Source: Bacteroidota bacterium
GTDB lineage: Bacteria > Bacteroidota > Bacteroidia > Bacteroidales > JAIOZK01
Direction of reading: 5' to 3'
NCBI GenBank assembly: GCA_034521425.1
Contig: JAXHMP010000001.1
Location: 2,779,182 to 2,843,181, forward strand
DNA: 64,000 nt
Position numbers and translations under genes: made by a program. Shown in pieces: positions 111-63,348 of this stretch. The first letter of the stretch is position 1. Each line of letters opens with the position of its first letter. Below the pieces are notes generated by a model. It was not told the DNA's origin. It saw only the letters and a program-made list of their open reading frames with translations, and made no database searches.

Positions 111-245
111 TACCATACAATCATACAATCATACAATCATACAATCAACCAACCATACAATCCCGTCTCACCTCAGGCGAGACGAGGATCCTCGACTACA
201 AGTCGGGACCATACAATCATAAAACCATACAATCATTCAATAGCA
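111..245. repeat. CATACAAT-type STR flanking a ~48-bp double hairpin
   Basis: catacaat units on both sides of cccgtctcacctcaggcgagacgaggatcctcgactacaagtcgggacc (cgtctc/gagacg and ctcgact/agtcggg stems). Near-identical module at 8568-8690. Confidence 0.8.
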
Positions 246-247
246 CC

Positions 248-2032
248 GTGACCCTAGACCAAGCCATCGTCATCCTCGTCATCCTCTTCATCATCCTCTC
301 CCTCTATTTCAACTGGGTGGGGCCGGGATTTACGTTTACCATCGGCGTGATCGTGCTGGGGATCTTCGGGGTGCTGACACCGGGGGAGATCCTGAGCGGT
401 TTCTCCAACGAACAGATCGCCGTGATCGTGATCCTGTTAATTATTGGTGATACCATCCGGCGATCGGCCATGCTGGATGCGGTTTTCGGGAAATATTTCA
501 AAGACAGGCTCTCCTTCAGGTCCTATCTCTTCAGGATGACCACCCTGGTAGCCGGCTTCTCTGCTTTCCTCAACAACACCCCCCTGGTGGCCATCCTCAT
601 GCCCAATGTGCATGCCTGGGGAAAAAAGAACAATATTTCACCATCGAAACTACTGATACCCCTGTCCTTTGCAGCCATACTGGGCGGATGCCTCACCCTC
701 ATCGGCACCTCCACCAACTTGGTGGTAAACGGACTGGTAGCCGAGCAGGATATCTTCCCGGAATTCAAGTCGCTGAACATTTTTGATTTTACCTGGGTGG
801 GACTGCCCATGGCTGTGATCGGCATCCTCTACCTGATCCTTTTCAGCAACAAACTCCTGCCCGACAAAGAAGACGTGCTGGAAGACTTCTCCAAAAAACA
901 ACGCGAATACATGGTGGAAGTGAGGGTGAAGTCCTCATCCAAACTTTCGGGTAAAAGCATCGAAGAAGCCGGATTGCGGAACCTGCCCGGCCTCTTCCTG
1001 GTGGAGATCCGCAGGAACGAGCTGACCCTGCCGGCAGTTTCGCCCTACACGAAGATCTTTGAAAATGATGTGATGTATTTCGCCGGGGAAACCGAAACCA
1101 TTGCCGAACTGGTAAGAGAAAAAAACGGACTGCAGCTTTCACAAATGGGCATGTATGCTAAAAAAGATCATACCGAACTTTTGGAAGTGGTGGTATCTTA
1201 CAACTCCACCCTCGTCGGCAAGGTCGTGCGGGAATCCAACTTCCGGGCCCGTTTTGATGCGGCCATCATTGCCATCCACCGCAACGGGGAAAAGATCAGC
1301 GGCAAGATCGGGGATGTGAAGCTCATGGCCGGGGATGTTTTATTGCTGTTAGCCGGGGATGATTTCAAAAACCATTACAAAGAAACCAACGAATTTTACC
1401 TGATCAGCAAGGTGAAGGAATTCAACAAACCCAATGTGTTCAACAATTACTTTTTGATCGGGGGCACCATTCTGGCCATCCTGGTGGCTGCCTTCAAGCT
1501 CACCAGCCTCTTCATCTCCCTCACCATATTGCTGTCGCTCATCATGATATTGAAGATCAATTCACCCAAAAATATTGCCCGCAGCATCGACTTCAACCTC
1601 ATCATCGTGATCGCTCTGGCCCTGGCCCTGGGCACGGCCATGATCAAGACCGGCGTGGCGGCCGACCTGGCCCATTTTACCTTTGGTGTGCTGAAACCTT
1701 TCGGCATCATCGGCATCATGGCAGGGGTATACCTCATCACCACCCTGCTGGGCGCCCTGGTCACCAACAAAGCCGCCGTGGCCCTCATCCTGCCGGTGGC
1801 CCTCACCCTGGCCCTGGAAATAGGAGCCGACCCGCGCCCCTTTGCCCTGCTGGTCGCCTTCGCCGGCGCCGCCAGCTTCCTCACCCCCATCGGCTACCAG
1901 ACCAACCTCATGGTCTACGGCCCGGGAGGCTACAACTTCAAAGACTTCCTGCGCATCGGAACACCGCTCACCCTGATTTATTTGGTGGGGACGGTTTTGA
2001 TTCTGGTTTGGCAGTTTGGGCTGCATCTGTGA
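248..2032 (+). CDS. SLC13/DASS-family permease with two central TrkA-C (RCK_C) domains; possible sulfate/anion symporter
   Basis: 594-aa intact ORF (GTG start). Hydrophobic N- and C-terminal halves around two TrkA-C-like segments (VRVKSSSKLSGKSIEEAGLR.., VVVSYNSTLVGKVVRESNFRARFDAAIIAIHRNGE..). Lies next to cysC. GC-rich codon usage. Confidence 0.85.
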   Translation: MTLDQAIVILVILFIILSLYFNWVGPGFTFTIGVIVLGIFGVLTPGEILSGFSNEQIAVIVILLIIGDTIRRSAMLDAVFGKYFKDRLSFRSYLFRMTTLVAGFSAFLNNTPLVAILMPNVHAWGKKNNISPSKLLIPLSFAAILGGCLTLIGTSTNLVVNGLVAEQDIFPEFKSLNIFDFTWVGLPMAVIGILYLILFSNKLLPDKEDVLEDFSKKQREYMVEVRVKSSSKLSGKSIEEAGLRNLPGLFLVEIRRNELTLPAVSPYTKIFENDVMYFAGETETIAELVREKNGLQLSQMGMYAKKDHTELLEVVVSYNSTLVGKVVRESNFRARFDAAIIAIHRNGEKISGKIGDVKLMAGDVLLLLAGDDFKNHYKETNEFYLISKVKEFNKPNVFNNYFLIGGTILAILVAAFKLTSLFISLTILLSLIMILKINSPKNIARSIDFNLIIVIALALALGTAMIKTGVAADLAHFTFGVLKPFGIIGIMAGVYLITTLLGALVTNKAAVALILPVALTLALEIGADPRPFALLVAFAGAASFLTPIGYQTNLMVYGPGGYNFKDFLRIGTPLTLIYLVGTVLILVWQFGLHL

Positions 2033-3341: not shown

Positions 3342-3586
3342 ATTCCTGTCTGCCGACAGGCAGGAATCCCGATGAGGCCGAATCGGGACAACAACACAAA
3401 ACAACAAACCAATTAGATCAATTAGATTAATTCGATGACAAAAAAATCCGATGATCATCATCTAATTCAACGAATTAAACGCCGCACACATCGTAATGAA
3501 ATGAAGATAGGGAATGAATGATTGGATGGATGGATGGATGGATGAATGGATGGATGGATGAATGAATGGATGGATGAATGAATGAA
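3338..3586. repeat. Composite spacer module, copy 1 (hairpins + AACAAAC + 'aattagatcaattagattaattcgatgac' block + GGATGRATG STR)
   Basis: Direct repeat of 4542-4873: ttgaattcctgtctgccgacaggcaggaatcccgatgaggccgaatcgggac...cgaattaaacgcc...ggatggatgaatg array. Confidence 0.85.
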
Positions 3587-3652
3587 AAAGTGCCTAACAA
3601 TCACACAATCCCGGGCTGATCATTTTTATTATCTTTGAATAAAGCCTTAGAA

Positions 3653-4541: not shown

Positions 4542-4873
4542 TTGAATTCCTGTCTGCCGACAGGCAGGAATCCCGATGAGGCCGAATCGGGACAACAACA
4601 CAAAACAACAAACCAATTAGATCAATTAGATTAATTAGATGACAAAAAAATCCGATGATCATCATCTAATTCAACGAATTAAACGCCACACCAATCCTAA
4701 TGAAATGAAGATAGGGAATGAATGATTGGATGGATGAATGAATGGATGAATGATTGGATGGATGAATGAATGGATGAATGATTGGATGAATGGATGGATG
4801 GATGGATGATTGGATGAATGGATGGATGGATGGATGATTGGATGAATGGATGGATGGATGGATGAATGGATGA
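4542..4873. repeat. Composite spacer module, copy 2 (longer GGATGRATG STR)
   Basis: Same module as 3338-3586, with a ~160-bp ggatgaatg/ggatggatg array at 4716-4873. Confidence 0.85.
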
Positions 4874-4880
4874 AGGGACT

Positions 4881-5250
4881 AAATTAATTTGAAAATGAGA
4901 AAATTTGAAAATTTGAAAATTAAAACCGCTACGCGGGAAATTCACCAATACCGCTTATCGTGGAAATAAGACATAAGCTTTTGGAAATAGATTTCAATAA
5001 CCAGGGTGTTTTTGCGGTGTAGAAAACGAACAACATGTTGGGTAGTTTTGTAGCCTAAGCGCCTAAATTAATTTGAAAATTTGAAAATGAGAAAATTTGA
5101 AAATTAAAACCGCTACGCGGGAAATTCACCAATACCGCTTATCGTGGAAATAAGACATAAGCTTTTGGAAGTAGATTTCAATAACCAGGGTGTTTTTGCG
5201 GTGTAAAAAACGAACAACATGTTGGGTAGTTTTGTAGCCTAAGCGCCTAA
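4881..5250. repeat. Tandem duplication of a ~185-bp unit
   Basis: 4881-5064 and 5065-5250 are near-identical (aaattaatttgaaaat..accgctacgcgggaaattcaccaataccgcttatcgtgg..tagcctaagcgcctaa). No convincing ORF. Confidence 0.85.
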
Positions 5251-6290: not shown

Positions 6291-6648
6291 ACAAACACAG
6301 AAGCCGAAGACACATTCAAAACCAATGATAACTTTGCGACTCTGCGTGAAATAATTCGTGTAAATCCCTGCCTGCCGGTAGGCACGGTGTGTAATTCCCC
6401 GCTTATTGCGGGACAGGCGTGGACAAAAAATTAGATCAATTAGATTAATTCGATGACAAAAAAATCATCCGATGATCCATCATCTAATTTATCGAATTAA
6501 ACCCTGTGTAATTGTCGATATCATAGATCAAGTTGAATAGTTCAGGATTTATTACACAGGGTAAACGAATTAAACGCCGTGGCCGTCATAATGAATGGAA
6601 GAAAGGAAATATTTCACGCAAAGCCGCAAAGACGCGAAGTTTTGACGG

Positions 6649-6817
6649 AATGAACTACCCCGAGGCAAGCCTGCGGGGTATCATTATGAAACATTCATTT
6701 GATTCGCCCCAAGGGGCGGGGAATATTACCCACGAGATCCCTCGACAAGCTCGGGATCAGTTCGACTTTGCTTTTTCAGTTCGCTATCGCTCCTAAAAAA
6801 TCAGTCTCACTGATTTA
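6649..6817. mobile_element. 169-bp MITE, copy 1 (IS3-family derivative)
   Basis: aatgaactaccccgaggcaagcctgcggggtatcattatg...cagtctcactgattta. Copies also at 54156-54324 and 63114-63282. Its ends resemble those of the IS3-family element at 44970-46197. Confidence 0.75.
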
Positions 6818-6874
6818 ACGCCGCACCCGTCGTAATGAAATGTAGATAGGTAAAAACTGATGAATACCAAACAC

Positions 6875-8536: not shown

Positions 8537-8700
8537 ATGGATGATTGGATGGATGGATGTGGTAGAATCATACAATCATACAATCATACAATCCCGTCTC
8601 ACCTCAGGCGAGACGAGGATCCTCGACTAAAAGTCGGGACCATACAACCATACAACCAACCAATCATACAACCATACAACCATACAAACCTTCAATTCGT
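8537..8700. repeat. GGATGGATG STR + CATACAAT STR + double hairpin (second copy of the 111-245 module)
   Basis: cccgtctcacctcaggcgagacgaggatcctcgactaaaagtcgggacc at 8593-8641, flanked by catacaa(t/c)c units. Confidence 0.8.
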
Positions 8701-12037: not shown

Positions 12038-12290
12038 CGGTCTACCTTATTCAGGCATTGTCAACTCCAAACCGAGAACACAGAACACAAAACACAGAAT
12101 ACCCCGTTGAAATATGCTCGTACCTTTATCCCGTGAAATTTTAATATTTTATTTCACTGGGATCGCATTTCACGGTTTACCCTGTGAAATCTTTTTAAAA
12201 TAATTTCAACAGGGGGTAAACAACAAACACCCCGTTGAAATATGCTCGTGCCTCGCATTTCACGGGGTAAACCAAACAACAAACAACAAA

Positions 12291-13551: not shown

Positions 13552-13676
13552 TTACGCCCACAAGCGTAACTCCGGGAGGCGTAGTAGGTGTTTGGTACTT
13601 CGGCATGAGCCCTTCAGGCTTGCCCAGCCTTCCGGCAAGCTCAGGACAGGCCTGTCGAATGGCTCGAGTATAAATT

Positions 13677-13732
13677 GTTCGGTGTTCGGTGTTCGGTGTT
13701 CGGTGTTCGGTGTTCGGTGTTCAGTGTTCGGT
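13677..13732. repeat. GTGTTCG heptamer STR
   Basis: About 8 tandem units. The same heptamer occurs at 15743-15838 and 17690-17740, and as its complement (CGAACAC/CAAACAC) at 7490-7513 and 14885-14920. Confidence 0.9.
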
Positions 13733-13794
13733 GCAGCATAACACAAAACAACAAAAACTGTAATTTTACCTAAGTATTAGCAAAAGGCGAAATC

Positions 13795-14220: not shown

Positions 14221-14340
14221 CATTTACCCTGTTTACCCCGCCTGTCCCGCTGAAACCCTCTTCTCGTTTCACTGGGATTGATTCTCTTCACAATCAACCG
14301 GGGTGGAATCACGAAGTGAATATTCCATCAGGGACAAACA
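14221..14340. repeat. Structured ~120-bp repeat, copy b
   Basis: Same element as 12291-12400. Confidence 0.8.
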
Positions 14341-15280: not shown

Positions 15281-15732
15281 ATGAGTCACAGGGATCACAT
15301 CGAAATCCTGCAAGAACACACAGAATCATTGCAAAATGCGCTTAAAAAAATGGTTGAAGCGATCATTGGAGATTTGTAAACAGCATCCCATTGACAACCT
15401 CAGTCCGGAGCAATGGATGCATACGAAGGCTTAACGAGTCGTTTTGCACGTGTATGCGATATCCTTTTTAGCAAGCTCTTCCGAACTATCTTCTTCTTAG
15501 AGCAAGGGGAAGCAGGAACATGGCTAGATGTGCTTCTGTTTATGGAAGAAAATGTCATTGACAATACGAAAGAGGCAAGGCTTCTCAAAGAACTCAGAAA
15601 TGACATTGTGCATGAGTATGCTGAACTATGAACATAATTTTCAGGGAAGTGATGGATCAAGCCCTTTTTGCTCCAATACGCAAAGGAAGCACTTCTCAAA
15701 GTTCAGAACTAAACGAAAAATTGAAAAGTTAA
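15281..15732 (+). pseudogene. HEPN-like partner of MNT, decayed
   Basis: ..AYEGLTSRFARVCDILFSKLFRTIF..RNDIVHEY (R-x4-H HEPN motif). Related to 23443-23898. Frameshifts near 15400 and 15630. Confidence 0.6.
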
Positions 15733-15742
15733 GTTACGGATT

Positions 15743-15838
15743 GTTCGGTGTTCGGTGTTCGGTGTTCGGTGTTGTGTTCGGTGTTCGGTGTTCGGTGTTC
15801 GGTGTTCGGTGTTCGGTGTTCGGTGTTAGTGCTCGGTG
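15743..15838. repeat. GTGTTCG heptamer STR
   Basis: About 13 units. Confidence 0.9.
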
Positions 15839-17101: not shown

Positions 17102-17282
17102 ACACCAAACCCCGATGAGCTACGAATCGGGACACAAAACAACAAACACCAAACACCAAACATTTACCCTGTGGAATCACGAAGTGAATATTCCATCAGG
17201 GACAAACACAAAACAACAAACAACAAACAAATTAGATCAATTAGATTAATTCGATGACAAAAAAAATCATCCGATGATCAAA

Positions 17283-17602: not shown

Positions 17603-17852
17603 GTAGAGTCATTGGCCGTGTTTCATCATCGATCATCGCCTTGCCTGCCGGCAGGCAGGAGGTAATGTTTCGTGTTCCAGTGTTCGGGTGTTTTCATGTT
17701 CAGTGTTTCGTGTTTCGTGTTCGGTGTTCGGTGTTCGGAGCAGCATAACACAAAACAACAAACAACAAACAACAAACAATTTATACTGAGCTTGCCGAAG
17801 TACCAAACACAAAACAGAAATAACATTTGAGTAATTTGAGGACAAAAAATCA

Positions 17853-21788: not shown

Positions 21789-21880
21789 TTAGCTATCTTG
21801 GAAATCTGGTATAAAAGGAACCAAATACAAATAGATTCTGTTTGTTGTTCGGTGTTTCAGTGTTTGGTGTGGCGGTAGGC

Positions 21881-22106
21881 AACAACAAACAACAAACAAA
21901 AAACAAACAAACAAAACTACAACAAACAAACAAACAGAAACAAACAAACCAAACCAAACAAACAACAAACAACAAACAACAAACAAACAAACAAACAAAC
22001 AACAAACAACAAACAAACAAACAAACAAACAAACAAACAACAAACAAACAAACAAACAAACAAACAAACAAACAAACAAACAAACAAACAAACAAACAAC
22101 AAACAA
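21881..22106. repeat. AACAAAC heptamer STR (~225 bp)
   Basis: The longest array of a heptamer that recurs in dozens of spacers. It creates spurious 100-aa ORFs on both strands. Confidence 0.95.
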
Positions 22107-22188
22107 ATGTCCAATCACGGCATATCCCAAATACTCTTATCAACTGATCATTGAAACATTAAGCAATGAGGAGCAGATACTCCAGGCA

Positions 22189-24036: not shown

Positions 24037-24391
24037 CAACAAACAACAAACAACAAACATTTTTACAAGTGAACATAAAAACTTACAGAAAACACTCGAA
24101 CTAATCAACAAAATCGGAGGATTAATAGCCTATCTGAAGAAATCAAACTACAAAGGAACAAAGTTCAAATAAAACACTGAACAACAATCACCCCGTTGAA
24201 ATATGCTCGTACCTCGCATTTCACGGGGTAAACCAAACAACAAACAACAAACAACGAACAACAAACAATTTATCCTGAGCCTGCCGAAGGGCCTGTCCTG
24301 AGCTTGCCGAAGGGCTCATGATAAATCTTGCCGAAGTAACAAAAAAATTAGATCAATTAGATTAATTCGATGATAAAAATTAGTTGAATTA

Positions 24392-47641: not shown

Positions 47642-47781
47642 ATGAATAAGATTGCACTAATTACAGGAATAACCGGTCAGGACGGCGCCTACCTAGCCGA
47701 ATACCTGATCAAAAAAGGATACATTGTCCATGGGATCAAAAAGAAGAGCTTCCCTGTTCAGATACCGACAGGATGGATCAT
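47642..47781 (+). pseudogene. gmd: GDP-mannose 4,6-dehydratase 5' fragment, copy 1 (most diverged)
   Basis: [34 protein letters not shown].. breaks at ..ggatcat|gaggtaacgaagc. Confidence 0.85.
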
Positions 47782-48419
47782 GAGGTAACGAAGCTATGAG
47801 AGGTGAGAGGTGAGAGGTGAGAAGTGAGAGGTGAGAGGTGAGAGGTGAGAAGTGAGAGGTGAGAGGTGAGAGGGTGAGAGGTGAGCCTGCTAACTTCATA
47901 ATTTAAAGTACTAACACCATGAGTCAACTTGGAGATAGCGATGAGAGATGAGTGGTGAGAGGTGAGACTGCTAACTTCATAATTTAAAATACTAACACCA
48001 TGAGTTCAAATTGGAGATAGCGATGGAGATGAGGGTGAGAGGTGAGACTGCTAACTTCATAATTTAAAATACTAACACCATGAGTCAGAAATGGAAATAG
48101 CAGTGAGAGATGAGAGGTGAGAGATGAGATTTGAGAGATGAGAGGTGAGAAATGAGCTAGCCAAGTTCAATATGTAAAACATCAACACCATGAGTTAGAA
48201 TGGAAATAGCGGTGAGAGATGAGCGGTGAGAGATGAGATCTAGACTAAGCGTGCAGATAGATATAAACATCAAACCGCCCCTGTCCGAATACGAGAGATG
48301 AGAGGTGAGAATGATTGAAGATGAGCTCACGAGAGAATGCAGTAAGTGACCGACATATGTCAAACTCTCATTCTGCCAGTTTCACCACTCATGAAAGATC
48401 GCTCATAACTTAAAAAACC
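47782..48419. repeat. GAGAGGT STR interleaved with ~60-bp core units that each contain the four-helix-bundle gene start
   Basis: Four units of ..ctgctaacttcataatttaaaatactaacaccATGAGTCAGAA..ggaaatagcg + (gagaggt/gagagat)n. Confidence 0.85.
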
Positions 48420-48794: not shown

Positions 48795-48822
48795 GTACAT
48801 CTTAAAAATAAACGACCCCCTA

Positions 48823-48868
48823 ACTCACTACTCACCTCTCACTACTCATCTCTCATCTCTCAAATCTC
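48823..48868. repeat. Inverted STR (CTCACYW / ACCTCTC)
   Basis: Complement orientation of the GAGAGGT family, immediately 3' of the ORF. Confidence 0.85.
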
Positions 48869-49100
48869 AATAACCTCAAACATTGCTGAAGCCTGGGCGA
48901 AGAAAATATATGTCAAATCTTTTGTCAGCAAGCTGAGCGATTCACTCGGCGAGGAATACGAATCAGAAGTCTGGCTGGACTATTCCAGAGATTGCCAATA
49001 CATTAATACAGAAACCTACAATTCACTGATAAACAAATACAACGAAGTCAGAAAAATGCTAATCGCCATGATGAACAACCCAGAAAAGTTCTGCAAATAG
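48869..49100 (+). pseudogene. Four-helix-bundle gene, 3' two-thirds fragment
   Basis: ..SNIAEAWAKKIYVKSFVSKLSDSLGEEYESEVWLDYSRDCQYINTETYNSLINKYNEVRKMLIAMMNNPEKFCK* has no 5' end. Confidence 0.8.
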
Positions 49101-49823: not shown

Positions 49824-50554
<731 letters not shown>

Positions 50555-50929
50555 ATGAGTCAGATTAATAGTTTTAGGGATTTGATTGTATTTAAAAAAG
50601 CCTATGAAGTCGGAATGGAAATTTTTGAAATAACCAAACATTTTCCAAAAGAAGAAAAATATTCGTTAACCGATCAAATTCGAAGATCATCCAGATCAGT
50701 AAGCTCAAACATAGCCGAAGCTTGGGCCAAAAGGATTTATGTCAAATCTTTTGTCAGCAAGCTGAGTGATTCACTCGGCGAAGAATACGAATCAGAGGTC
50801 TGGCTGGACTATTCCAGAGATTGCCAATATATTAATACCGATACCTACAATTCATTGATAAACAAATATGACGAAGTCAGAAAAATGCTAATCGCTATGA
50901 TCAATAGTCCAGAAAAATTCTGCAAGTAA
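50555..50929 (+). CDS. Four-helix-bundle protein (23S rRNA IVS protein family)
   Basis: Intact 124 aa: FRDLIVFKKAYEVGMEIFEITKHFPKEEKYSLTDQIRRSSRSVSSNIAEAWAKR.. Confidence 0.85.
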   Translation: MSQINSFRDLIVFKKAYEVGMEIFEITKHFPKEEKYSLTDQIRRSSRSVSSNIAEAWAKRIYVKSFVSKLSDSLGEEYESEVWLDYSRDCQYINTDTYNSLINKYDEVRKMLIAMINSPEKFCK

Positions 50930-50956
50930 GAACATCTAAGAACAAACGATCCCCTA

Positions 50957-51073
50957 ACTCATAACTCATCTCTCACCACTCACCACTCACCGCTCACTAC
51001 TCATCTCTCACCTCTCATCTCTCACTACTCACTACTCACTACTCACCGCTCACCTCTCACCGCTCACCTCTCA
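50957..51073. repeat. Inverted STR (CTCAYYR heptamers)
   Basis: ctcataactcatctctcaccactcaccactcaccgctcactactcatctctc... is the complement of the left-arm heptamers. Confidence 0.9.
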
Positions 51074-51138
51074 ATATCTAAAAGCTTTAACTCAATTAAC
51101 AAGATAAACGATATTAACAAAAACACAAACTCAACAAC

Positions 51139-52855: not shown

Positions 52856-54041
52856 ATGCAAAAAAACAGCAAAATATACGTCGCCGGCCATACCGGCCTT
52901 GTAGGAAGCGCCCTTGTAAAAGCCCTGCAAAGAAGAGGCTATTCAGAACATCATAGGTAAAACAATCAATGAACTGGATTTAAGAAATCCCTATATCGGT
53001 AAGTAACTTTTTTCGAATCATTCGAAACCCGAATACATCTTCCTGGCAGCGGCCAAAGTAGGTGGCATCGTCGCCAACAACATCTACCGCGCCGAGTTCA
53101 TTTACGACAACCTGATGATACAGAACAACATCATCAATGCAGCCTATGAATCAGGGGCCAAAAAACTCCTCTTCCTGGGCAGTACCTGCATCTACCCCCG
53201 CGAATGTCCCCAGCCCATGAAAGAGGAATATCTGTTAACGGATGTATTGGAGTACACCAACGAACCCTATGCCATCGCCAAGATCGCCGGCATCAAAATG
53301 GTCGAAAGCTATAACCTGCAATACGGCACCAATTTCATTTCCGTCATGCCCACCAACCTCTACGGTCCCAACGACAACTTCGACCTGGAAAAATCTCATG
53401 TATTGCCGGCATTGATCCGGAAAATTCATCTCGGCAAATGCCTCGAAGAAAACAACTGGGAAGCAATAAGAATAGACTTAAATAAACGTCCAATAGAAGG
53501 AATTAGTGGTGAGGCATCACAGCAAGACCTACTTAATATTCTTGATAAATATTCAATACGTCAGGTTAAAAGAGACGGTGTCATACTGAGCGAAGTCGAA
53601 GTATGGGGAAGTGGCGCTCCCATGCGCGAATTCCTCTGGAGCGAAGAAATGGCCGATGCATGTGTTTTCCTGATGGAAAATGTGGATTTCAAAGATTTGA
53701 TACAAAGTCAAATGTCAAAGGTTGAAAGTCACAAGTCGAAAGTCAAAAGTCAAAAGTCAGATACTGACCTTCGACCTTCGACCTTAGACCTTGGACATTC
53801 GACTGAAATAAGAAACACCCATATCAACATCGGTACCGGCAAAGAAATTTCCATAAAAGACCTGGCCCATCTGATCAAAGAAAGCATCGGCTTCCGGGGC
53901 GACCTGGTCTTCAACACCGAAAAACCGGACGGCACCATGCGCAAACTCACCGACCCCTCCAAACTGCATGAGCTGGGCTGGCATCATAAGATTGAGATAG
54001 ACGAAGGAATAGAGAAGATGTATGAGTGGTATCTGTCTTAG
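52856..54041 (+). pseudogene. fcl: GDP-L-fucose synthase, 5' end frameshifted, palindromic STR inserted in frame
   Basis: [21 protein letters not shown].. At least 3 frame breaks in 52940-53040, then an intact 308-aa ORF (..LGSTCIYP..EPYAIAKIAG..PTNLYGPNDNF..). Confidence 0.85.
53706..53804. repeat. Palindromic STR inside fcl (AGTCRAA xN / TTCGACC xN), in frame
   Basis: agtcaaatgtcaaaggttgaaagtcacaagtcgaaagtcaaaagtcaaaagtcagatactgaccttcgaccttcgaccttagaccttggacattcgact encodes SQMSKVESHKSKVKSQKSDTDLRPSTLDLGHST. Confidence 0.85.
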
Positions 54042-54155
54042 GAAGCGGTGAGAGGTGAGACTGCTAACTTCATAATTTAAAATACTAACACCATGAGTCA
54101 GAATTGAAATAGCGATGAGAGATGAGTGGTGAGAGGTGAGACTGCTAAATTCATA
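54042..54155. repeat. GAGAGGT STR + core units (left arm of the next four-helix-bundle cassette)
   Basis: Starts 6 nt after the fcl stop: gcggtgagaggtgagactgctaacttcataatttaaaatactaacaccatgagtcagaattg.. Confidence 0.85.
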
Positions 54156-54324
54156 AATGAACTACCCAGAGGCAACCCTGCGGGGTATCATTATGAAACA
54201 TTCATTTGATTCGCCCCAAGGGGCGGGGAATATTACCCACGAGATCCCTCGACAAGCTCGGGATCAGTTCGACTTTGCTTTTTCAGTTCGCTATCGCTCC
54301 TAAAAAATCAGTCTCACTGATTTA
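54156..54324. mobile_element. 169-bp MITE, copy 2, inserted inside a core unit
   Basis: Splits ..ttcataa|tttaaaatactaacacc.. The uninterrupted version occurs more than 8 times elsewhere. No target duplication is evident. Confidence 0.8.
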
Positions 54325-54463
54325 AAATACTAACACCATGAGTCAGATTAATAGTTTTAGGGATTTGATTGTGTTTCAGAAAGCCTATGAAGTTTCGATG
54401 GAAATATTTGAAGTAACCAAGAAATTCCCAAAAGAAGAAAAATATTCCTTAACTGATCAAATT

Positions 54464-54718
54464 CACCCTGTCAAATAATTCAATATTATTATGGATTTTT
54501 ATTACGTATATATTCTTCAAAGTGAACTTGATAATAAATTTTATACAGGTTATACTAAAAATATTGAATTAAGATTTGAGCAACATCAAAAAGGGCAAGT
54601 TCACCCTGTGAAATAAAATTAAAAATTTTAATGCGTAGCATTATTTCACAGGGTAAAAAACTCATTATGGGAAAATGTTTATTAAAAACAGGCTCAAATC
54701 TTATTTGACAGGGTAAAG
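54464..54718. mobile_element. 255-bp element with 13-bp terminal inverted repeats (ACCCTGTCAAATA) carrying a truncated GIY-YIG ORF and a nested mini-hairpin element
   Basis: caccctgtcaaata...tatttgacagggt. The inner accctgtgaaata..tatttcacagggt element lies at 54602-54657. A related left end occurs at 63011. Confidence 0.75.
54491..54615 (+). pseudogene. GIY-YIG nuclease-family gene, N-terminal 37 codons only
   Basis: MDFYYVYILQSELDNKFYTGYTKNIELRFEQHQKG.. contains the YVYIL..FYTGYT (GIY..YIG) motif. Truncated by the nested hairpin element. Confidence 0.7.
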
Positions 54719-54989
54719 CAGATCATCCAGGTCAATAACCTCAAACATTGCTGAAGCCTGGGCGAAGAAAATATATGTCAAATCTTTTGTCAGCAAGCTG
54801 AGTGATTCACTCGGCGAGGAATACGAATCAGAGGTCTGGCTGGACTATTCCAGGGATTGCCAATATATTAATTCCGATACCTACAATTCATTGATAAACA
54901 AATATGACGAAGTCAGAAAGATGCTCATCGCAATGATCAATAGCCCCGAAAAATTCTGCAAGTAAGAACATCTAAGAACAAACGATCCC

Positions 54990-55178
54990 TAACTCACTAC
55001 TCACCGCTCATCTCTCATCTCTCACCGCTCATCTCTCATCTCTCATCTCTCACCGCTCATCTCTCATCTCTCATCTCTCACCGCTCATCTCTCATCTCTC
55101 ATCTCTCACCGCTCATCTCTCATCTCTCATCTCTCACCGCTCATCTCTCATCTCTCACCGCTCATCTCTCATCTCTCA
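54990..55178. repeat. Higher-order STR (28-bp = 4 x 7: ctcaccg ctcatct ctcatct ctcatct)
   Basis: About 6.5 units. Inverse orientation to the GAGMGRT array at 56666-56757 on the other side of the ATPase gene. Confidence 0.9.
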
Positions 55179-55324
55179 AAAAAACCCCCAATAATAAAAC
55201 CAAAAACCACCCACCCTTACTCAATGTCGCCAAAACCGGAAGTAAAAAGACGCCAAAACCAGAAGTAAAAGTTTGCCATTATCGGAAGTTATAGTATATT
55301 TACAATACGAAAGCGGTTATCAAA

Positions 55325-56593
55325 ATGAATAAAAAGCCCTACATGCCACGAATATGTGATGCTGATTTGCAGCTTGCACTGCAATCATCAGGGGCGGTAT
55401 TAATAGAAGGAGCTAAATGGTGTGGGAAAACAAGTACATCAATGAATGCCTCGCGCAGTGTGTTGTTTATGCAGGATCCGGATAAAACAAGCGCATACCT
55501 GGCTATGGCAGACACAAAACCATCATTACTGCTTAAGGGAGATACTCCACGATTGATAGATGAGTGGCAAATGGCTCCGGTATTATGGGATGCTGTCAGG
55601 TTTGAAGTTGATAAAAGAGCAGAAATGGGGCAGTTTATTTTAACCGGGTCTGCTGTTCCCTCCGACAATGTTACTGCTCACACAGGTACAGGCAGGATAT
55701 CCCGTTTGCTGTTGCGCCCTATGAGTCTTTTTGAATCGGGGGAATCAAATGGAGAAATATCCTTGCGTGCTTTGTTCAATGGTGATCTTACAGTAGAGGC
55801 CATTTCAGATTTAAGCATAGAAGACATTGCTTTTGTTCTGTGCAGAGGAGGATGGCCGGCAAGTGTTCAGCAGAAAAAGGCAGCAGCTTTACGAATGGCA
55901 GTGGATTATGTGGAAGCTGTGATCAATCATGATGTGTCGAGGGTTGATGATGTTGAGAAGAATCCTGAAAGGGTTCGTATGTTGTTACGGTCATTGGCAC
56001 GTAACATTTCGACAATTGCCACTTATCAGACGATTAAAGATGATATGGAAGCAACCGATATAACTATATCCGATAAAACAATAAGTTCGTATATGAATGC
56101 GCTGCGCAGGATTTTTTTAGTTGAAGATTTGCCGGCATGGGCACCATCATTGCGCTCAAAAACAGCTATTCGAACTTCCCCCAAAAGGCATTTTGTAGAT
56201 CCATCCATTGCTACAGCTGTATTAAGGTCGAATCCGGAAGGAATATTAAACGATTTTCAATATTTTGGGTTCCTGTTTGAATCCTTGTGTACACGCGACA
56301 TCAGGGTGTATGCACAAACAAACGATGGCGATGTTTTTCATTATCGTGATAAAAGTGGTCTGGAAGCTGATTTAATTATACAACTCCACAATGGCAGATG
56401 GGCTGCAATTGAGATAAAACTGGGTCAAAAACAAATAGACTATGCCGCTGAAAATCTTTTAAAGCTTAAAAGCCAGATTGATAAGGATAAAATGGGTAAA
56501 CCATCTTTTTTGATGGTTCTTACAGGCGGGGAATACGCTTACCGGCGTGAAGATGGTGTTTTAGTTGTGCCCATTGCATGTTTGAAACCATAA
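55325..56593 (+). CDS. AAA ATPase with DUF4143-type C-terminal domain
   Basis: Intact 422 aa. Walker [10 protein letters not shown], ..RLIDEWQ.. (Walker B-like). Architecture typical of orphan Bacteroidetes ATP-binding proteins. Confidence 0.7.
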
Positions 56594-58515: not shown

Positions 58516-59836
58516 AATCTTCAAATTTTTTGTAAACTTACGAATTATTGTAACAATGGTTACAGTAATGGCTGTTACTTTTAACCGATCAAATACGCAG
58601 ATCATCCAGGTCAATAACCTCAATTATTGCCGAGACCTGGGCTACCACACCCGTCAGGCTGAACACCCCACCCGTCAGGCTGAGCGAAGTCGAAGCCCCA
58701 TAACTTGCTCACCAACAACGCATCTCGACTGCGCTCGATGTGACTGAGAGACAGACAATCAAAAAAATGATGTAACGATTGAGGGATTGCACGATATAAC
58801 GATATTCGAAGTAGGGCCCGAGCAAATCGCTAAGTCGTTAAATCGCCCAATCGATCAATCGCGCAATAAAAAAATGTTTTGCGAAAAGGCTGAGCACCTC
58901 ACCCGTCAGGCTGAGCACCCCACCCGTCAGGCTGAACACCCCTCCCGTCAGGCTGAGCACCGCGCCCGTCAGGCTGAGCGGAGTCGAAGCCCCGTAAATA
59001 CCTCACCAACAGCGCATCTCGACTGCGCTCGATGTGACTGACAGACAGACAATCAAAAAAAAATGATGTAACGATTGAGGGATTGCACGATATAACGATA
59101 TTCGAAGTACGGCCCGAGCAAACCGCTAAGTCGTTAAATCGCCCAATCGATCAATCGCGCAATAAAAAAATGTTTTGCGAAAAGGCTGAGCACCCCGCCC
59201 GTCAGGCTGAGCGAAGTCGAAGCCCCGTAACTTGCTCACTAACAGCGCATCTCGACTGCGCTCGATGTGACTGACAGACCGCATTCACCAACAAAAAAAC
59301 GGCTGCAACGATTCAGTATTCAGGCATGTAACGAGTACCTCAACAGTCAGGCTGAGCACACCACCCGTCAGGCTGAGCACCGCACCCGTCAGGCTGAGCG
59401 AAGTCGAAGCCCCGTAACTTGCTCACCAACAGCGCATCTCGACTGCGCTCGATGTGACTGAGAGACAGACAATCTGATGTAACGATTGAGGGATTGCACG
59501 AATAACGATATTCGAAGAGCCCGAGCAAATCGCTAAGTCGTTAAATCGCCCAATCGATCAATCGCGTAAAAAATGTTTTGCGAGCAGCACCGTCAGGCTG
59601 AGCACCGCCCCCGTCAGGCTGAGCACCGCTCCCGTCAGGCTGAGCGGAGTCGAAGCCCCGTAAATACCTCACCAACAGCGCATCTCGACTGCGCTCGATG
59701 TGACTGAGAGACAGACAATCAAAAAAATGATGTAACGATTGAGGGATTGCACGATATAACGATATTCGAATTGGGTACGAGCCATGATAGCAAAATGCAT
59801 TAACTATCTTTGTAAAATAGCTATTGAAAATGCGTA

Positions 59837-60001
59837 ATGACAATTAAAAAAGGCACAGAAAAGGATCAAATAAAAGCTATACTTGAGAAAATCAGGAGAA
59901 AAAGGGTAAGAAGAAAAACTGATTTAAGCAAATATTGCGGTGTATTATCGTTGAACGAAGACCCTTTGGAATTACAAAAAAAGTGGAGAGATGAATGGTG
60001 A
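59837..60001 (+). CDS. Putative antitoxin of PIN toxin
   Basis: 54 aa (MTIKKGTEKDQIKAILEKIRR...DPLELQKKWRDEW*). Overlaps the PIN start by 11 nt. Confidence 0.5.
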   Translation: MTIKKGTEKDQIKAILEKIRRKRVRRKTDLSKYCGVLSLNEDPLELQKKWRDEW

Positions 60002-60372
60002 TCAGCTTTTTCTTGATACGAATATCATTCTGTATTTTCTGAATGGTGATAAATCGCTATTGCCAAATTTAGAAGAAAAGCAATTATTCATTTCTTTTAT
60101 CACTCAGATGGAGTTGTTGAGTTTTAAAGAAATAACTAAAAAGGAAATAAATTTAATAGAGGGTTTCCTTACAAATTGTCTGATTATTGAAATGTCTTTA
60201 CGGATTAAAGAAAATGCAATTTTTGTTCGCAGGAAATATGGTTTAAAGTTGCCTGATGCCATTATTGCCGGGTCTTCAATATGTCCTGAACGTTCCACTA
60301 TTTTCTGCTGATAAAGCAATGTCCAGAATTTCAGAAATTGATCTAATTTATTATCAGTTTGATACAGAATGA
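59991..60372 (+). pseudogene. PIN-domain toxin, C-terminal frameshift
   Basis: MNGDQLFLDTNIILYFL.. (N-terminal D), ..SFITQMELLSF.., ..LKLPDAIIAG.. The frame shifts near 60275 and then reads ..NVPLFSADKAMSRISEIDLIYYQF. Confidence 0.65.
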
Positions 60373-61824
60373 GGGAAAGGAAAAATCCGGAATCCGAATA
60401 GCTCAAAGTCACCGAGTGAATAATCCGTCACATTAAGCTTGATATGACACTATTTTGTTTACGTTCTCCTGAGTTGAGGCGATATTACAATACCCCAAAA
60501 ATCGCTAAATTGCTATGTCGTGCAATCGCCCAATCGATCAATCGCGCAATAAAAAAATGTTTTGCGAAAAGGCTGAGCACCGCACCCGTCAAACTGAACA
60601 CCGCCCCCGTCAGGCTGAGCACCCCACCCGTCAGGCTGAGCGGAGTCGAAGCCCCGTAAATACCTAACCAACAGCGCATCTCGACTGCGCTCGATGTGAC
60701 TGAGAGACAAGGTTCACCAACATCAAAAACGCTAATAAGCCATTGTCAACCACCAACCACCAACCACCAACCACCAACCACCAACTACCAACCACCAACT
60801 ACTCATCTCAAATTCTGCGATCATCTGCGCAAAATAACATCCTTTTGCGACTTTGCGGCTTTGCGTGAAAAATTACAAGACACGCCTTGCAAACACACGC
60901 CAGCTGAGCACCGCACCCGTCAGGCTGAGCACCCCACCCGTCAGGCTGAGCGGAGTCGAAGCCCCGTAAACACCTCACCAACAGCGCATCTCGACTGCGC
61001 TCGATGTGACTGAGAGACAGACAATCAAAAAAATGATGTAACGATTGAGGGATTGCACGATATAACGATATTCGAAGTACGGCCCGAGCAAACCGCTAAG
61101 TCGTTAAATCGCCCAATCGATCAATCGCGCAATAAAAAAATGTTTTGCGAAAAGGCTGAGCACCCCGCCCGTCAGGCTGAACACCGCTCCCGTCAGGCTG
61201 AGCGTAGTCGAAGCCCCGTAACTTGCTCACCAACAGCGCATCTCGACTGCGCTCGATGTGACTGAGAGACAAGGTTCACCAACATCAAAAACGCTAATAA
61301 GCCATTGCCAACCACCAACCACCAACCACCAACTACCAACCACCAACTACTCATCTCAAATTCTGCGATCATCTGTGCAAAATAACATCCTTATGCGACT
61401 TTGCGGCTTTGCGTGAAAAATTACAAGACACGCCTTGCAAACACACGCCAGCTGAGCACCGCACCCGTCAGGCTGATCACCCCTCCCGTCAGGCTGAGCG
61501 GAGTCGAAGCCCAGTAAATAGCTCACCAACAGCGCATCTCGACTGCGCTCGATGTGACTGAGAGACAAGGTTCACCAACATCAAAAACGCTAATAAGCCA
61601 TTGTCAACCACCAACCACCAACTACCAACCACCAACTACTCATCTCAAATTCTGCGATCATCTGTGCAAAATAACATCCTTATGCGACTTTGCGGCTTTG
61701 CGTGAAAAATTACACACCCAAAATCGCTAAATCCTGCCTGCCGGCAGGCAAGGCGCTATGTCGTGCAATCTTTCAATCGAACAATCAAAAAAAATGATGT
61801 ATCTTTGAATAAGCAACTTAAGTT

Positions 61825-62127
61825 ATGGGTAGTACAAACACAAAACAAATGGATAAGCTATTGGAACAGATCAGTTGGGATTATAACCTATCTGTTGACG
61901 ATGCCCGTGCTTTGGTTGAAGGTAAGAGTGACCGTGCAGGCCATTATACCAGGCAGGCATTCTTTAAAAAGCTTCTGGAGTCCTATCCATGGTTTAGTGT
62001 TTTAAAAATTCTTCCTGCTACTGAGATCAAAAAATTACTGACAAGTGAAGTAATTAATAGTTTACGATCCCCTTCCTTAAAACAAAAGTATGAGTTCATC
62101 AGCCGCCGACTTAACGAAGTTATATAA
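61825..62127 (+). CDS. Small conserved protein upstream of AbiEii-type nucleotidyltransferase (antitoxin candidate)
   Basis: 100 aa. Same genomic pairing as 7515-7748 / 7745-8410. Confidence 0.5.
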   Translation: MGSTNTKQMDKLLEQISWDYNLSVDDARALVEGKSDRAGHYTRQAFFKKLLESYPWFSVLKILPATEIKKLLTSEVINSLRSPSLKQKYEFISRRLNEVI

Positions 62128-62809
62128 ACTGCAGGATCGCTTCCTGGAATGGTTTGTGACATTGAAACTACCTTTTTATCTTACGGGAGGCACAGCATTG
62201 GGCCGGTTTTATCTGAATCACCGTTATAGCAATGATCTGGACTTCTTTGTGAATGATGATTCCGAATTTCAGCTTCATGTTCAACAAATCAACAAAACGA
62301 TCAGAGAACATTTTATGGTAAACAATCAGCAAAGTCTTTTCTCAGAAGACTTTTCCAGGATTTTTATTGAAGATCGTGAAATTGCTTTAAAAATAGAATT
62401 CGTGAATGAAGTGAAATACCGGGCAGGAAACCCAATTGAATTCAGGTATGGCCTCCTTGATACACCGGAAAACATTCTATCCAATAAAATTTCTGCAATT
62501 TTAGGAAGAGACGAACCCAAGGATATTTTCGATATTATCTGCATGGCTGAAAAATACTCCTTTAACTGGGAGGAAATGTTTTATCACACCAAGAACAAGG
62601 CAGTTATCAATGAAGTGGATGTTGAAAGAAGACTGATTGAATTTCCGGTGGAGTGGATAAAAGATTTGCATTGGTTAAAAGAGCCTCCGGATATCAAGGA
62701 GCTCAAAAAGCATCTTAATACCATTGCCAATGATTTCCTCCTGGGAAAAGACAATTCTTTGGCAGAAAATAAAAAACCCATACAAAAAGCCAGGCCCTTA
62801 AAGATTTAA
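62090..62809 (+). CDS. Nucleotidyltransferase AbiEii/AbiGii toxin family
   Basis: ..FYLTGGTALGRFYLNHRYSNDLDFF.. motif. 239 aa, intact. The start codon is uncertain. Confidence 0.75.
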   Translation: MSSSAADLTKLYKLQDRFLEWFVTLKLPFYLTGGTALGRFYLNHRYSNDLDFFVNDDSEFQLHVQQINKTIREHFMVNNQQSLFSEDFSRIFIEDREIALKIEFVNEVKYRAGNPIEFRYGLLDTPENILSNKISAILGRDEPKDIFDIICMAEKYSFNWEEMFYHTKNKAVINEVDVERRLIEFPVEWIKDLHWLKEPPDIKELKKHLNTIANDFLLGKDNSLAENKKPIQKARPLKI

Positions 62810-62908: not shown

Positions 62909-63010
62909 ATGAAAACAAATTACATCTTCAAAGAAGAATGCTCCCGCATTATAGGTGCATGTTATGAAGTACACAATCAATTAGGTCATGGCTTCCTCGA
63001 AACAGTTTAC
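62909..63010 (+). pseudogene. GxxExxY protein gene, 5' 34 codons, truncated by element insertion
   Basis: MKTNYIFKEECSRIIGACYEVHNQLGHGFLETVY| then cctgttaaataattc.. (element end). Preceded by an inverted CACAGAT-type repeat at 62820-62895. Confidence 0.75.
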
Positions 63011-63113
63011 CCTGTTAAATAATTCAATATGAAGCATGTTTAAGTCAACAAGATGCGACTCATAGAGAAAAATATTCACGGTAAAATGTTTCTAAGAAAC
63101 AGGCTCAAATCTT
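63011..63113. mobile_element. Left part of an ACCCTGT(C/T)AAATA-IR element (relative of 54464-54718)
   Basis: The segment ..ggtaaaatgtttctaagaaacaggctcaaatctta matches 54668-54703 of the other copy. Its right end is replaced by MITE copy 3. Confidence 0.6.
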
Positions 63114-63282
63114 AATGAACTACCCCGAGGCAAGCCTGCGGGGTATCATTATGAAACATTCATTTGATTCGCCCCAAGGGGCGGGGAATATTACCCACGA
63201 GATCCCTCGACAAGCTCGGGATCAGTTCGACTTTGCTTTTTCAGTTCGCTATCGCTCCTAAAAAATCAGTCTCACTGATTTA
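63114..63282. mobile_element. 169-bp MITE, copy 3
   Basis: Near-identical to 6649-6817 and 54156-54324. Confidence 0.8.
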
Positions 63283-63348
63283 AAAAATGATTGACCATTC
63301 CAGCTCAAAAATCAAATTTGTATATTTGTACACAGAAAATGAAATTTT

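Follow-up and report, generated by a model that had tools for sequence, protein, structure and literature searches.

The window analysed here is a 64,000-nucleotide (nt) stretch of contig JAXHMP010000001.1 from a Bacteroidota bacterium, which holds several paralogous genes for four-helix-bundle proteins. One of these genes is split by a short insert with inverted ends that contains the remains of a GIY-YIG nuclease gene (Table 1). The open reading frame (ORF) starting at 54338 encodes MSQINSFRDLIVFQKAYEVSMEIFEVTKKFPKEEKYSLTDQI and then enters the insert, while the downstream frame continues as RSSRSITSNIAEAWAKK...FCK. Deletion of exactly 253 nt (54465-54717) joins both parts in a 124-aa ORF reading ...LTDQIRRSSRSI... 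(...YSLTDQIRRSSRSITSNIAEAWAK...), whose product is 93.5% identical to the intact paralog at 50555-50926 and matches both PF05635 (E=1e-34, 119.4 bits with a cut-off of 33.8, residues 8-113) and TIGR02436 (E=1.7e-32, 111.9 bits, cut-off 24). The block begins with ACCCTGTCAAATAA and ends with TTATTTGACAGGGTAAA, and positions 54460-54720 read ...GATCAAATTC/ACCCTGTCAAATAATTCAATATTATTATG...CTCAAATCTTATTTGACAGGGTAAA/GCAGATCATCC..., where, as elsewhere in this text, the slash marks an insertion junction. The three uninterrupted paralogous sites (50555, 48420, 58584) have the DNA CAAAT(T/A)CG(A/C)AGATCA (GATCAAATTCGAAGATCA, GATCAGATTCGAAGGTCT and GATCAAATACGCAGATCA) and thus define the junction as ATTC/.../GCAGATCA, with the insertion between ATTC and GCAGA. 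By the same comparison the boundaries cannot be shifted and the site lacks a target duplication. The host gene is therefore inactivated by an insertion in codon 43, 3' of ATTC.

A first-pass annotation of this DNA had described the insert as a mobile element with perfect 13-bp termini and a GIY-YIG fragment. The termini are indeed perfect (ACCCTGTCAAATA at 54465-54477 and TATTTGACAGGGT at 54702-54714), and the mobile element is borne out by the excision and by the bracketed homologues described below. Its proposed bounds, 54464-54718, were one nt too wide on each side, and in-silico excision, by which it had suggested checking the insert, leaves the host out of frame when that 255-nt block is removed. 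Blocks of 250 and 256 nt restore the frame but create the non-canonical DQIQSRSS and DQSRSS, so that only 253 nt fits the paralogs. A single perfect 13-bp inverted repeat within 250 nt is expected about 0.2 times by chance in 64 kb (an arithmetic estimate), and the terminus motif has seven matches in the window at two mismatches or fewer against 2.06 expected, a count reached in 0/100 shuffles. Doubt about chance is removed by the homology of the insert to 70+ bracketed copies elsewhere.

These copies come from a scan of one genome per species with protein alignment, which returned 408 relatives, of which the best 80 loci were kept. Both termini were located in 79 copies, 74 of them well anchored, and the junction counts rest on these. 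In 74/79 copies the ORF is bracketed by TTY/ACCCYGTNAAATAA ... TTATTTNACRGGGTRAA/, 278-301 nt apart. The intact element measures about 285-295 nt and has an 86-aa GIY-YIG ORF as its sole gene. Full-length relatives, which the first-pass annotation had proposed to look for, do exist (loci L001/L004, L003 and L006), although their protein has 86 aa, with a C-terminus ...NRLKSYLTG, instead of the predicted 90-100. Among the best 80 of the 408, protein identity is 74-100%, and the carriers comprise Bacteroidota, many Patescibacteria lineages of the candidate phyla radiation (CPR), Gammaproteobacteria, Bdellovibrionales, Cloacimonadota, Desulfitobacteriaceae, Izemoplasmatales, Nanoarchaeota, and Bathyarchaeia. 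The proteins nearest to that of the window belong to Prolixibacteraceae and Bacteroidales metagenome-assembled genomes, and viral contigs yielded no relative of the nuclease.

Across the 74 copies, information content drops sharply at -4 on the left and +4 on the right. T occupies -3 in 68/74 and -2 in 70/74, a pyrimidine stands at -1, and RAA at +1 to +3. A palindromic target TTY^RAA, with RAA derived from the target, was rejected as a general rule for the window, L006, L046, L001, and L003A, whereas it fits one lineage better (L044, L054, L068, L074). Removal of the element restores intact four-helix-bundle ORFs in L006, L044, and L046, and no target duplication accompanies the inverted termini in the window, L006 or L046, unlike what is expected of a classical miniature inverted-repeat transposable element (MITE) or a DDE-type element. 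Four-helix-bundle genes hold or adjoin 21/79 copies, all but L028 co-oriented with the host, and several sites are used: DQI/RRS, NIA/EG, IA.KEA, NIAEGRRF/ES, and a position just before the start codon. The DQI/RRS site is occupied repeatedly in divergent paralogs (window, L001, L003, L005, L006). In L001 (GCA_041821245.1) and L003, an intact gene of 86 or 104 aa with the same termini follows a 46-aa four-helix-bundle fragment ending ...DQI, and the insertion site is thus that of the window in a different paralog.

The first-pass annotation had held genes of this four-helix-bundle type, related to those of intervening sequences (IVS), to be the target of the element. They are a recurrent target but not the only one, since elsewhere the element lies mostly in operons, where TTY is the only feature common to most sites. 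The nearest ORFs are co-directional in 59/70 cases upstream and 61/71 downstream, the start codon of the next gene lies -2 to +7 nt from RAA in about 24/74 copies, and a long open frame enters the left arm in 35/74, 24 of which stop at the TAA of the arm itself. At CPR and other loci the stop codon of the element abuts or overlaps the next start codon (GGGTAAATG, GGGTAAATATG, GGGTGAATATG), as in L008, L011, L012, L017, L026, L029, L036, L042, L043, L049, L050, L052, L057, L062, L075, L078, L081, and others. At such operon junctions the element supplies a stop, its own ORF, and a restart, and the upstream ORF often ends at the left-arm TAA.

The cis-acting structure of the element extends beyond its ends. 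RNAalifold, applied to 66 non-identical elements (alignment A2), yields three contiguous helices with zero unpaired bases at their junction. Stem A pairs the two termini, of which the right one (TATTTGACAGGGT) consists of the codons S-Y-L-T-G and the T of the stop codon, while the left one, in the 5' untranslated region (5'UTR), is its complement. Stem B pairs the 5'UTR with codons ~24-27, and stem C codons ~27-31 with ~79-83. In this consensus structure 98.5% of 1978 cells are paired and both sides have changed in 14/30 pairs (87 cells), values reached by 0/500 shuffles, and pairing falls to 21-52% when partners are slid by 1-3 columns. The variable base of the arm covaries with its partner (T-A 36, C-G 17, G-C 2, T-G 1). 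Stem B reads TTTTAAATT with AATTTAAAA in CPR copies versus TTCAATATT with AATATTGAA in those of Bacteroidales, and in stem C a change of Arg AGA to CGA always occurs with Ser TCT to TCG (6/6). Moreover, relative synonymous-codon entropy is 0.21 in stem codons and 0.80 elsewhere (Mann-Whitney p = 8e-8), with Leu80 encoded by CTC in 62/63 copies and Lys81 by AAA in 66/66. Folded as a single sequence, the window copy forms the same junction (-72.7 kcal/mol, z = -7.6). The three-way junction is under nucleotide-level selection and, rather than a simple inverted repeat, is the key cis feature of the element. Among non-Watson-Crick pairs, G-U (~14) and A-C (~13) are about equally frequent, which weakly favours a constraint at the DNA level on both strands over a fold of the sense RNA. 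Rfam scans at gathering thresholds found no family in the window, introns included. In eight loci with full or mini-elements, such scans retrieved three tRNA genes only, none at an element, and at 54100-54800 a search by E-value yielded miRNA and RAGATH-22 matches of chance level only.

The protein encoded by the element is predicted to be a minimal single-domain GIY-YIG nuclease of the Slx1/UPF0213 lineage. Its full-length homologue P0002 matches PF01541 (E = 9.1e-16, 58.4 bits, cut-off 22.6), and in the protein alignment (A1) the residues Y5, Y7, Y18, G20, R28, H32, E52, and E64 are invariant, including those expected from the alignment to be catalytic, with a mean column identity of 86% across phyla. 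Since these residues are invariant and synonymous change is abundant in the ORF outside the stems, the protein is under selection. Of the 86 codons, the window copy keeps only 1-37 and 68-86. In the PDB, P0002 has just two sequence relatives, the UPF0213 proteins 1zg2 (E = 1.4e-6) and 1ywl (E = 3e-5), which Dunin-Horkawicz et al. (PMC1564403) place in the prokaryotic Slx1-like 'minimal' group. An AlphaFold (AF2) model of the nuclease, with a pLDDT (per-residue model confidence) of 90.7, retrieves 1zg2 first in Foldseek, followed by eight Slx1 chains (7cq2/7cq3/4xm5/6sei/6seh) with template-modelling (TM) scores of 0.60-0.65 and root-mean-square deviations of 2.3-5.3 A, whereas UvrC (TM 0.52) and I-TevI (TM 0.47) rank lower. 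The 86 aa are entirely nuclease domain, leaving no C-terminal DNA-binding domain of the kind found in homing endonucleases; TIGR01453 scores 20.3 bits, below its cut-off of 56, and NCBIfam has no model specific for this nuclease.

The nuclease gene of the window copy has been destroyed by deletion. Its second part (codons 68-86) is 100% identical to the family consensus by tblastn, and between both parts lies a mini-element without an ORF, a 52-nt palindrome (54603-54654) whose terminal AAA merges into an A run and which folds as DNA into a Y shape (-15.4 kcal/mol, z = -5.8). The first-pass annotation saw this mini-element, rightly took it for a relative of the surrounding element, and had it cutting the ORF after codon 37. 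The intact 104-aa homologue P0036 (L003, on a 2.1-Mb contig) has the homologous palindrome in frame, flanked by Y66 and K68, and the stem of that palindrome shows a compensatory change (GGAAT with ATTCC in place of GAAAT with ATTTC). Aligned with L003 and L006, the window copy has the right junction of the palindrome in common but lacks some 90 nt (codons 38-66) on the left side of it. It follows from this alignment that the mini-element was inserted at codon 66/67 and only later moved next to codon 37 by the deletion. The left junction of the window mini-element is accordingly a deletion junction, not an insertion site, and the window copy is a dead, internally deleted descendant of an allele with the mini-element at codon 66/67. 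CAAGTTC/ACCC had been considered as a second TTY insertion site and was rejected, as the deletion seen in the L003 alignment reaches the original left flank of the hairpin. Despite the destroyed ORF, all three stems are kept (inverted repeats I1, I5, and I7), and both the deletion and the nested palindrome fall within the loop of stem C. The Y-shaped mini-element of 54 nt lies in frame within the intact P0036 ORF (L003 3001-3315) and adds 18 residues (SPCGIKSMILMRSIIPQG). This nested pair may still be functional and mobile as one unit.

Hairpins that lack an ORF but have the stem A and the TTY/RAA flanks of the element are found at 6501, 12101-12271 (nested), 24190, and 54603 of the window, and also in the flanks of elements from other phyla (L003, L014, L030, L037, L038, L053, L071, L072). 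Of the spacer hairpins listed in the first-pass annotation, those at 12101-12271 and 24190-24232 are related to the element, while the one near 10.8 kb is a weak variant only. Of 11 folded mini-elements, seven adopt a Y shape (z -5.8 to -8.6), in which stem A is capped by two short hairpins of unrelated sequences with zero unpaired junction bases, and these seven represent as many different sources, the window among them; the other four (window 6501 and 24190, L038, and L037 with a further nested insert) form a single or interrupted stem. These ORF-less derivatives have spread not only to spacers but also into the nuclease gene and, by nesting, into one another (window 12.1 kb, L037, L085), so that the Y structure alone behaves as a mobile unit. 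At L085 4065-4400 (AGBJ01000193.1), at least four family hairpins are piled into one another directly after the stop codon of a gene, the outermost with the loop sequence of the window mini-element (AAAATCGTAGATTTTAATGC). A metagenome scan for the GIY-YIG/hairpin junction returned two loci, neither with that junction, one of them a hairpin nest.

The window holds a second copy of the element, which truncates a GxxExxY gene after GFLETVY as the first-pass annotation had proposed. The remaining 34-aa fragment matches PF13366 (E=1.2e-6, 29.3 bits, cut-off 22), and an intact paralog at 52411 matches TIGR04256 with 136.7 bits. The left terminus ACCCTGTTAAATAATTCAATAT starts at 63009 directly after ...GGCTTCCTCGAAACAGTTT, and since the paralog reads GCAGTTTATCAAGAA, this insertion also lies 3' of TTT. 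The remnant retains GIY-YIG codons ~52-66 and ~72-82, having lost the 3' strand of stem B, the 5' strand of stem C, and the right terminus. At the codon 66/67 site (63068-63082), where the first copy has its mini-element, it reads AAATATTCAC/GGTAAAATG, which looks like the footprint of an imprecise palindrome loss. Its right end is replaced by a repeat, as had also been noted (as a MITE copy), which proves to be an unrelated sequence of 170 nt with three copies in the window (6649-6818, 54156-54325, 63114-63283) that are 99-100% identical. This repeat starts with (A)ATGAACTACCCCGAGGCAAGCCTGCGGGG, ends with ...CAGTCTCACTGATTTAA, and contains several internal G+C hairpins; obvious inverted termini are absent, and Rfam has no match for it. 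One copy lies in the leader of the interrupted four-helix-bundle gene, with an empty site TTCATAATTTAAAATAC at 54078-54094.

Table 1. Features of the two element copies, their host genes, and related repeats. Positions refer to the window, except for helices A to C, which are given in columns of alignment A2.
Feature	Position	Strand	Remarks
Host four-helix-bundle gene, 5' part	54338..54464	+	codons 1-42 and first base of codon 43; ends ...GATCAAATTC; ORF listing, paralog comparison
Inserted element	54465..54717	+	253 nt; host ORF restored by exact excision; alignable over its whole length with the complete elements of L003 and L006
Host four-helix-bundle gene, 3' part	54718..54965	+	remainder of codon 43 to stop
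Helix A	10-20 with 290-300		pairs the two termini
Helix B	21-29 with 114-122		5'UTR with codons K-N-(L/I)-(K/E)-L
Helix C	123-131 with 281-289		codons L-R-F-E with R-L-K-S-Y
Stem A, 5' strand	54465..54478	+	left terminus ACCCTGTCAAATAA; homologous to A2 columns 9-22
Stem B, 5' strand	54479..54487	+	5'UTR TTCAATATT; inverted repeat I5, single-sequence minimum-free-energy fold, A2 covariation
GIY-YIG pseudogene, codons 1-37	54491..54601	+	MDFYYVYILQSELDNKFYTGYTKNIELRFEQHQKGQV
Stem B, 3' strand	54560..54568	+	AATATTGAA, codons N-I-E; inverted repeats, fold, A2
Stem C, 5' strand	54569..54581	+	TTAAGATTTGAGC, codons L-R-F-E; inverted repeat I7, fold, A2 covariation
Nested ORF-less mini-element	54603..54657	+	arms ACCCTGTGAAATAA / TTATTTCACAGGGT, two small internal hairpins; homologous to L003 3201-3252
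GIY-YIG pseudogene, codons 68-86	54657..54716	+	KTHYGKMFIKNRLKSYLTG and TAA (54714-54716); frame differs from codons 1-37; tblastn
Stem C, 3' strand	54692..54703	+	GCTCAAATCTTA, codons R-L-K-S-Y; inverted repeats, fold, A2 covariation
Stem A, 3' strand	54701..54717	+	right terminus TTATTTGACAGGGT and terminal AAA
Truncated GxxExxY / PDDEXK_3 gene	62909..63008	+	N-terminal 33 codons and 1 nt; target ...ACAGTTT/; cut after GFLETVY
Second element copy, remnant	63009..63113	+	left terminus ACCCTGTTAAATAA, part of 5'UTR, two GIY-YIG coding pieces (EACLSQQDATHREKY; GKMFLRNRLKS)
Unrelated 170-nt repeat	63114..63283	+	replaces right end of second copy; direct-repeat family D16
Related hairpin	6501..6565	+	ACCCTGTGTAAT...ATTACACAGGGTAAA
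Nested hairpin cluster	12101..12271	+	ACCCCGTTGAAAT...; ATCCCGTGAAAT...; ACCCTGTGAAATC...; ACCCCGTTGAAAT...ATTTCACGGGGTAAA
Related short hairpin	24190..24232	+	ACCCCGTTGAAAT...ATTTCACGGGGTAAA

Gene order around the copies is partly shared. L003 (1750-5127) carries an AbiEii toxin gene, the four-helix-bundle gene split by the GIY-YIG element, and an AAA_14/DUF4143 ATPase gene; in the window (53115-56593) the same AAA_14/DUF4143 gene follows the split gene, and an AbiEii gene (62090-62809) precedes the second copy. This shared order suggests that ERZ1757541 contig_6669 comes from a relative of the source genome. Each four-helix-bundle gene of the window has heptamers (GGTGAGA / GATGAGA)n upstream and their reverse complement (TCTCACC / TCTCATC)n downstream, paired as 47764-47900 with 48810-48881, 50137-50436 with 50923-51108, and 54047-54150 with 54979-55185, so that each cassette is enclosed by a long inverted repeat of short tandem units. 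Of the four-helix-bundle fragments at 48849-49097 and 58584-58643, one has a heptamer array in place of its N-terminal third (…SLISQI/SITSNIAEAW…) and the other is a 20-codon piece (TDQIRRSSRSITSIIAETWA). The window has few long ORFs and is saturated with tandem arrays of 7-8-nt units (ATGGATGA, TGTTCGG, AACAAAC, ATCATACA), found at 104-250, 3490-3610, 4690-4900, 8559-8696, 13660-13735, 15726-15834, 17688-17750, and 21870-22120, several of them mutually reverse complementary (TGTTCGGTGTT versus AACACCGAACA-type). A unit of 195-292 nt (families D3, D8, D11) recurs about nine times in 58638-61646, in tandem or dispersed and with 63-95% identity, and another hairpin family with related arms ACCCTGTGGAAT-CACGAAGTGAAT-ATTCCATCAGGGA occurs at 14306, 16440, 17166-17210, and 24011, at the edges of repeated spacer units.

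Several known systems have traits in common with the element, each with its own differences. The Slx1/UPF0213 proteins (YhbQ-like, with the structure-selective At-HIGLE and ANKLE1 as relatives) have the same fold and, by our own assignment, the same conserved active-site residues, and their prokaryotic forms are single-domain and 'minimal' (PMC1564403), as in the element. Relatives of these proteins cleave branched DNA, Y-junctions, and cruciforms (PMC9071465, PMC10287932), and the ability to cut junctions, Y-structures, and cruciforms is known for enzymes of the SLX1 lineage, for minimal GIY-YIG enzymes, and for other members of the superfamily (PMC9071465, PMC10287932, PMC7610144), whereas the element protein is known here from sequence and model. 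The Slx1/UPF0213 proteins have been treated as cellular repair or recombination enzymes, while the element is a bounded unit, present in multiple copies and spread horizontally, that has this gene as its only cargo and forms a branched structure with its own DNA. GIY-YIG homing endonucleases (I-TevI, I-BmoI, T4 Seg) likewise are selfish nuclease genes inserted in conserved genes without target duplication, with one site in a gene family used recurrently. However, they have ~200-250 aa and a DNA-binding domain that the 86-aa protein lacks, and the latter is structurally nearer Slx1 (TM 0.65) than I-TevI (0.47); in addition, the element has no intron according to Rfam, has conserved terminal pairing, and has ORF-less derivatives that spread without homology.

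The rRNA IVS, such as the Leptospira 23S IVS encoding a four-helix-bundle protein and the CPR insertions (PMC11270868), are also short inserts with stem-forming ends and no self-splicing intron, and they can contain a small ORF belonging to the two protein families seen here. The element agrees with them in that stem A pairs its ends and no ribozyme fold was matched in Rfam, but its window copies lie in protein-coding genes instead of rRNA genes; more generally, it occupies protein-coding genes and operon junctions, and its junction includes coding sequence. IS200/IS605 and the repetitive extragenic palindromes with their tyrosine transposases (REP/RAYT) similarly insert 3' of a short specific sequence without duplication (here TTY at -3 to -1 in ~68-70/74 copies, with no duplication at the window site), depend on DNA secondary structure, and have a strand or orientation bias and abundant hairpin-only derivatives. 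In contrast, the enzyme of the element is a GIY-YIG hydrolase and not an HUH Y1 transposase (TnpA), the GIY-YIG gene being its only ORF, the whole element measures only ~290 nt, and its ends pair together while theirs each form their own subterminal hairpin. The T-shaped terminal hairpins of parvoviruses, namely the inverted terminal repeats of adeno-associated virus, also combine a long stem with two short palindromes at a three-way junction and serve as a cis signal for a nuclease. They are viral telomeres cut by the HUH protein Rep, and the likeness is one of shape only, without sequence or evolutionary relation. Finally, Rickettsia palindromic elements and Correia elements are small palindromic repeats found within intact ORFs, like the 54 nt and 18 residues in P0036, but differ from the element in sequence, in the absence here of a TA duplication, and in the candidate cognate nuclease. 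A full-text literature search returned no account of paired termini, junction or hairpin derivatives, and the element apparently is previously undescribed, although coverage was incomplete and an earlier description is possible. What comes nearest in print is a remark on the GIY-YIG ORFs of CPR rRNA insertions, described as 'not similar to either intron' (PMC11270868).

As a whole, the insert is best explained as a decayed copy of a selfish element of ~290 nt that combines a minimal GIY-YIG nuclease with a three-way junction and has mobilised derivatives, a reading to which we assign a probability of roughly 60%. The nuclease, like its structural relative Slx1, would recognise and cut branched DNA, its proposed substrate being the Y-shaped structure extruded by the element, in the form of either a cruciform or single-stranded DNA. 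Excision or copying would start with cuts at the stem A base (TTY/ACCC and RAA/), the 3-nt offset between both positions across the stem corresponding to the geometry of a staggered duplex cut, and host ligation or repair would complete the move. Mini-elements would be mobilised in trans, while spread among paralogous four-helix-bundle genes may also use homology-dependent repair, that is, homing. We would go only tentatively, and below even odds, as far as a new class of transposable elements in prokaryotes, at ~290 bp perhaps the smallest that are autonomous, whose only protein, a structure-selective Slx1-like nuclease, cuts the base of a self-encoded Y-junction that includes part of the coding sequence and mobilises ORF-less derivatives in trans. 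A crossing of the family between bacterial and archaeal phyla, with 75-100% protein identity, belongs to that proposal and is just as tentative.

Several observations weigh against this explanation. Mobility is read from sequence comparison, and no identical copies were seen at different sites, the closest pairs being 86-88% identical. Positions -1 and +1 do not covary (C.A 27 copies, T.G 13), so that TTY:RAA is only partly base-pair-like, and the junctions are not uniform, the IA.KEA-site lineage fitting better, in our reading, with a host-derived AAA. GIY-YIG nucleases form no covalent intermediate, and strand joining would thus have to be supplied by the host. The junction structure could equally act in the transcript. 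Two DQI-site copies (L001, L003) have T at -1 where the host codon requires C, a difference that suggests co-conversion during homing. Furthermore, GIY-YIG ORFs are present in non-intron rRNA insertions of CPR bacteria (PMC11270868).

Several of these points fit the main alternative explanation, according to which the gene is a free-standing homing endonuclease gene with an RNA-level, IVS-like stem. Empty sites would be cut and double-strand break repair would copy the gene from an occupied paralog, while the junction would act in the transcript, looping out or insulating the insert, allowing RNase III processing as in rRNA IVS, or controlling translation of the nuclease and the downstream gene. 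Both the recurrent occupation of DQI/RRS in divergent paralogs and the apparent co-conversion of the flank in L001 and L003 agree with it, as do the co-orientation of ~85% of the copies with flanking genes, the next start codon within a few nt of the element end in ~24/74 copies, the left arm that supplies the stop codon of the upstream ORF in 24 copies, and the occurrence of GIY-YIG and 23S_rRNA_IVP ORFs in non-intron CPR rRNA insertions (PMC11270868). We nevertheless consider it unlikely, though well worth keeping in view, because ORF-less mini-elements at unrelated sites without flanking homology imply that mobility needs no cis signal beyond the Y structure, the protein of 86 aa lacks a domain for binding a long site (TIGR01453 20.3 versus 56), G-U is not favoured over A-C in the stems, and most sites outside four-helix-bundle genes have just TTY in common. 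Homing and a selfish element with its own junction are not mutually exclusive.

The hairpins might instead be REP- or MITE-like sequences moved by another enzyme, for example an IS200/IS605-type or RAYT Y1 transposase with its gene elsewhere, and the GIY-YIG gene would be a passenger trapped between two arms or would encode a host or element factor that processes such hairpins without mobilising them. The insertion geometry (3' of a short target, without duplication, dependent on hairpins) resembles that of IS200/IS605 and REP/RAYT, and many hairpin variants of the window (12.1-12.3, 24.19, and 6.5 kb) have no nuclease gene nearby. What makes this improbable is that ORF and structure are interwoven, with 3/6 stem strands coding, synonymous sites constrained, and compensation between UTR and codons, which would be unexpected for a passenger, and that the same gene-plus-structure unit is kept across phyla; no Y1 transposase was seen in the loci examined, where no systematic search for one was made. 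A chance inverted repeat or a local rearrangement, which a window saturated with repeats and the not very improbable occurrence of a single 13-bp inverted repeat might suggest, is refuted for practical purposes by the exact restoration of the host ORF, the 74 bracketed homologues in many phyla, and the strong covariation.

For the Slx1-like GIY-YIG proteins that stand alone in bacteria and archaea, we know of no assigned role other than a guess at 'repair'. If the selfish-element explanation is true, at least this subfamily of minimal nucleases is the engine of a selfish element, and a structure-specific hydrolase acting on three-way-junction DNA would join the known ways in which DNA moves. 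The element could also explain the non-intron GIY-YIG insertions in CPR rRNA genes. Moreover, one compact stretch specifies both a protein and a nucleic-acid structure, a case of dual coding. The conserved 17-nt ends and the Y shape provide a simple signature to annotate the elements and their hairpin derivatives, whose genes are currently annotated as 'GIY-YIG nuclease family protein' and split host genes into fragments. An 86-aa junction-specific nuclease with a defined natural substrate would, if this holds true, also be a possible reagent.

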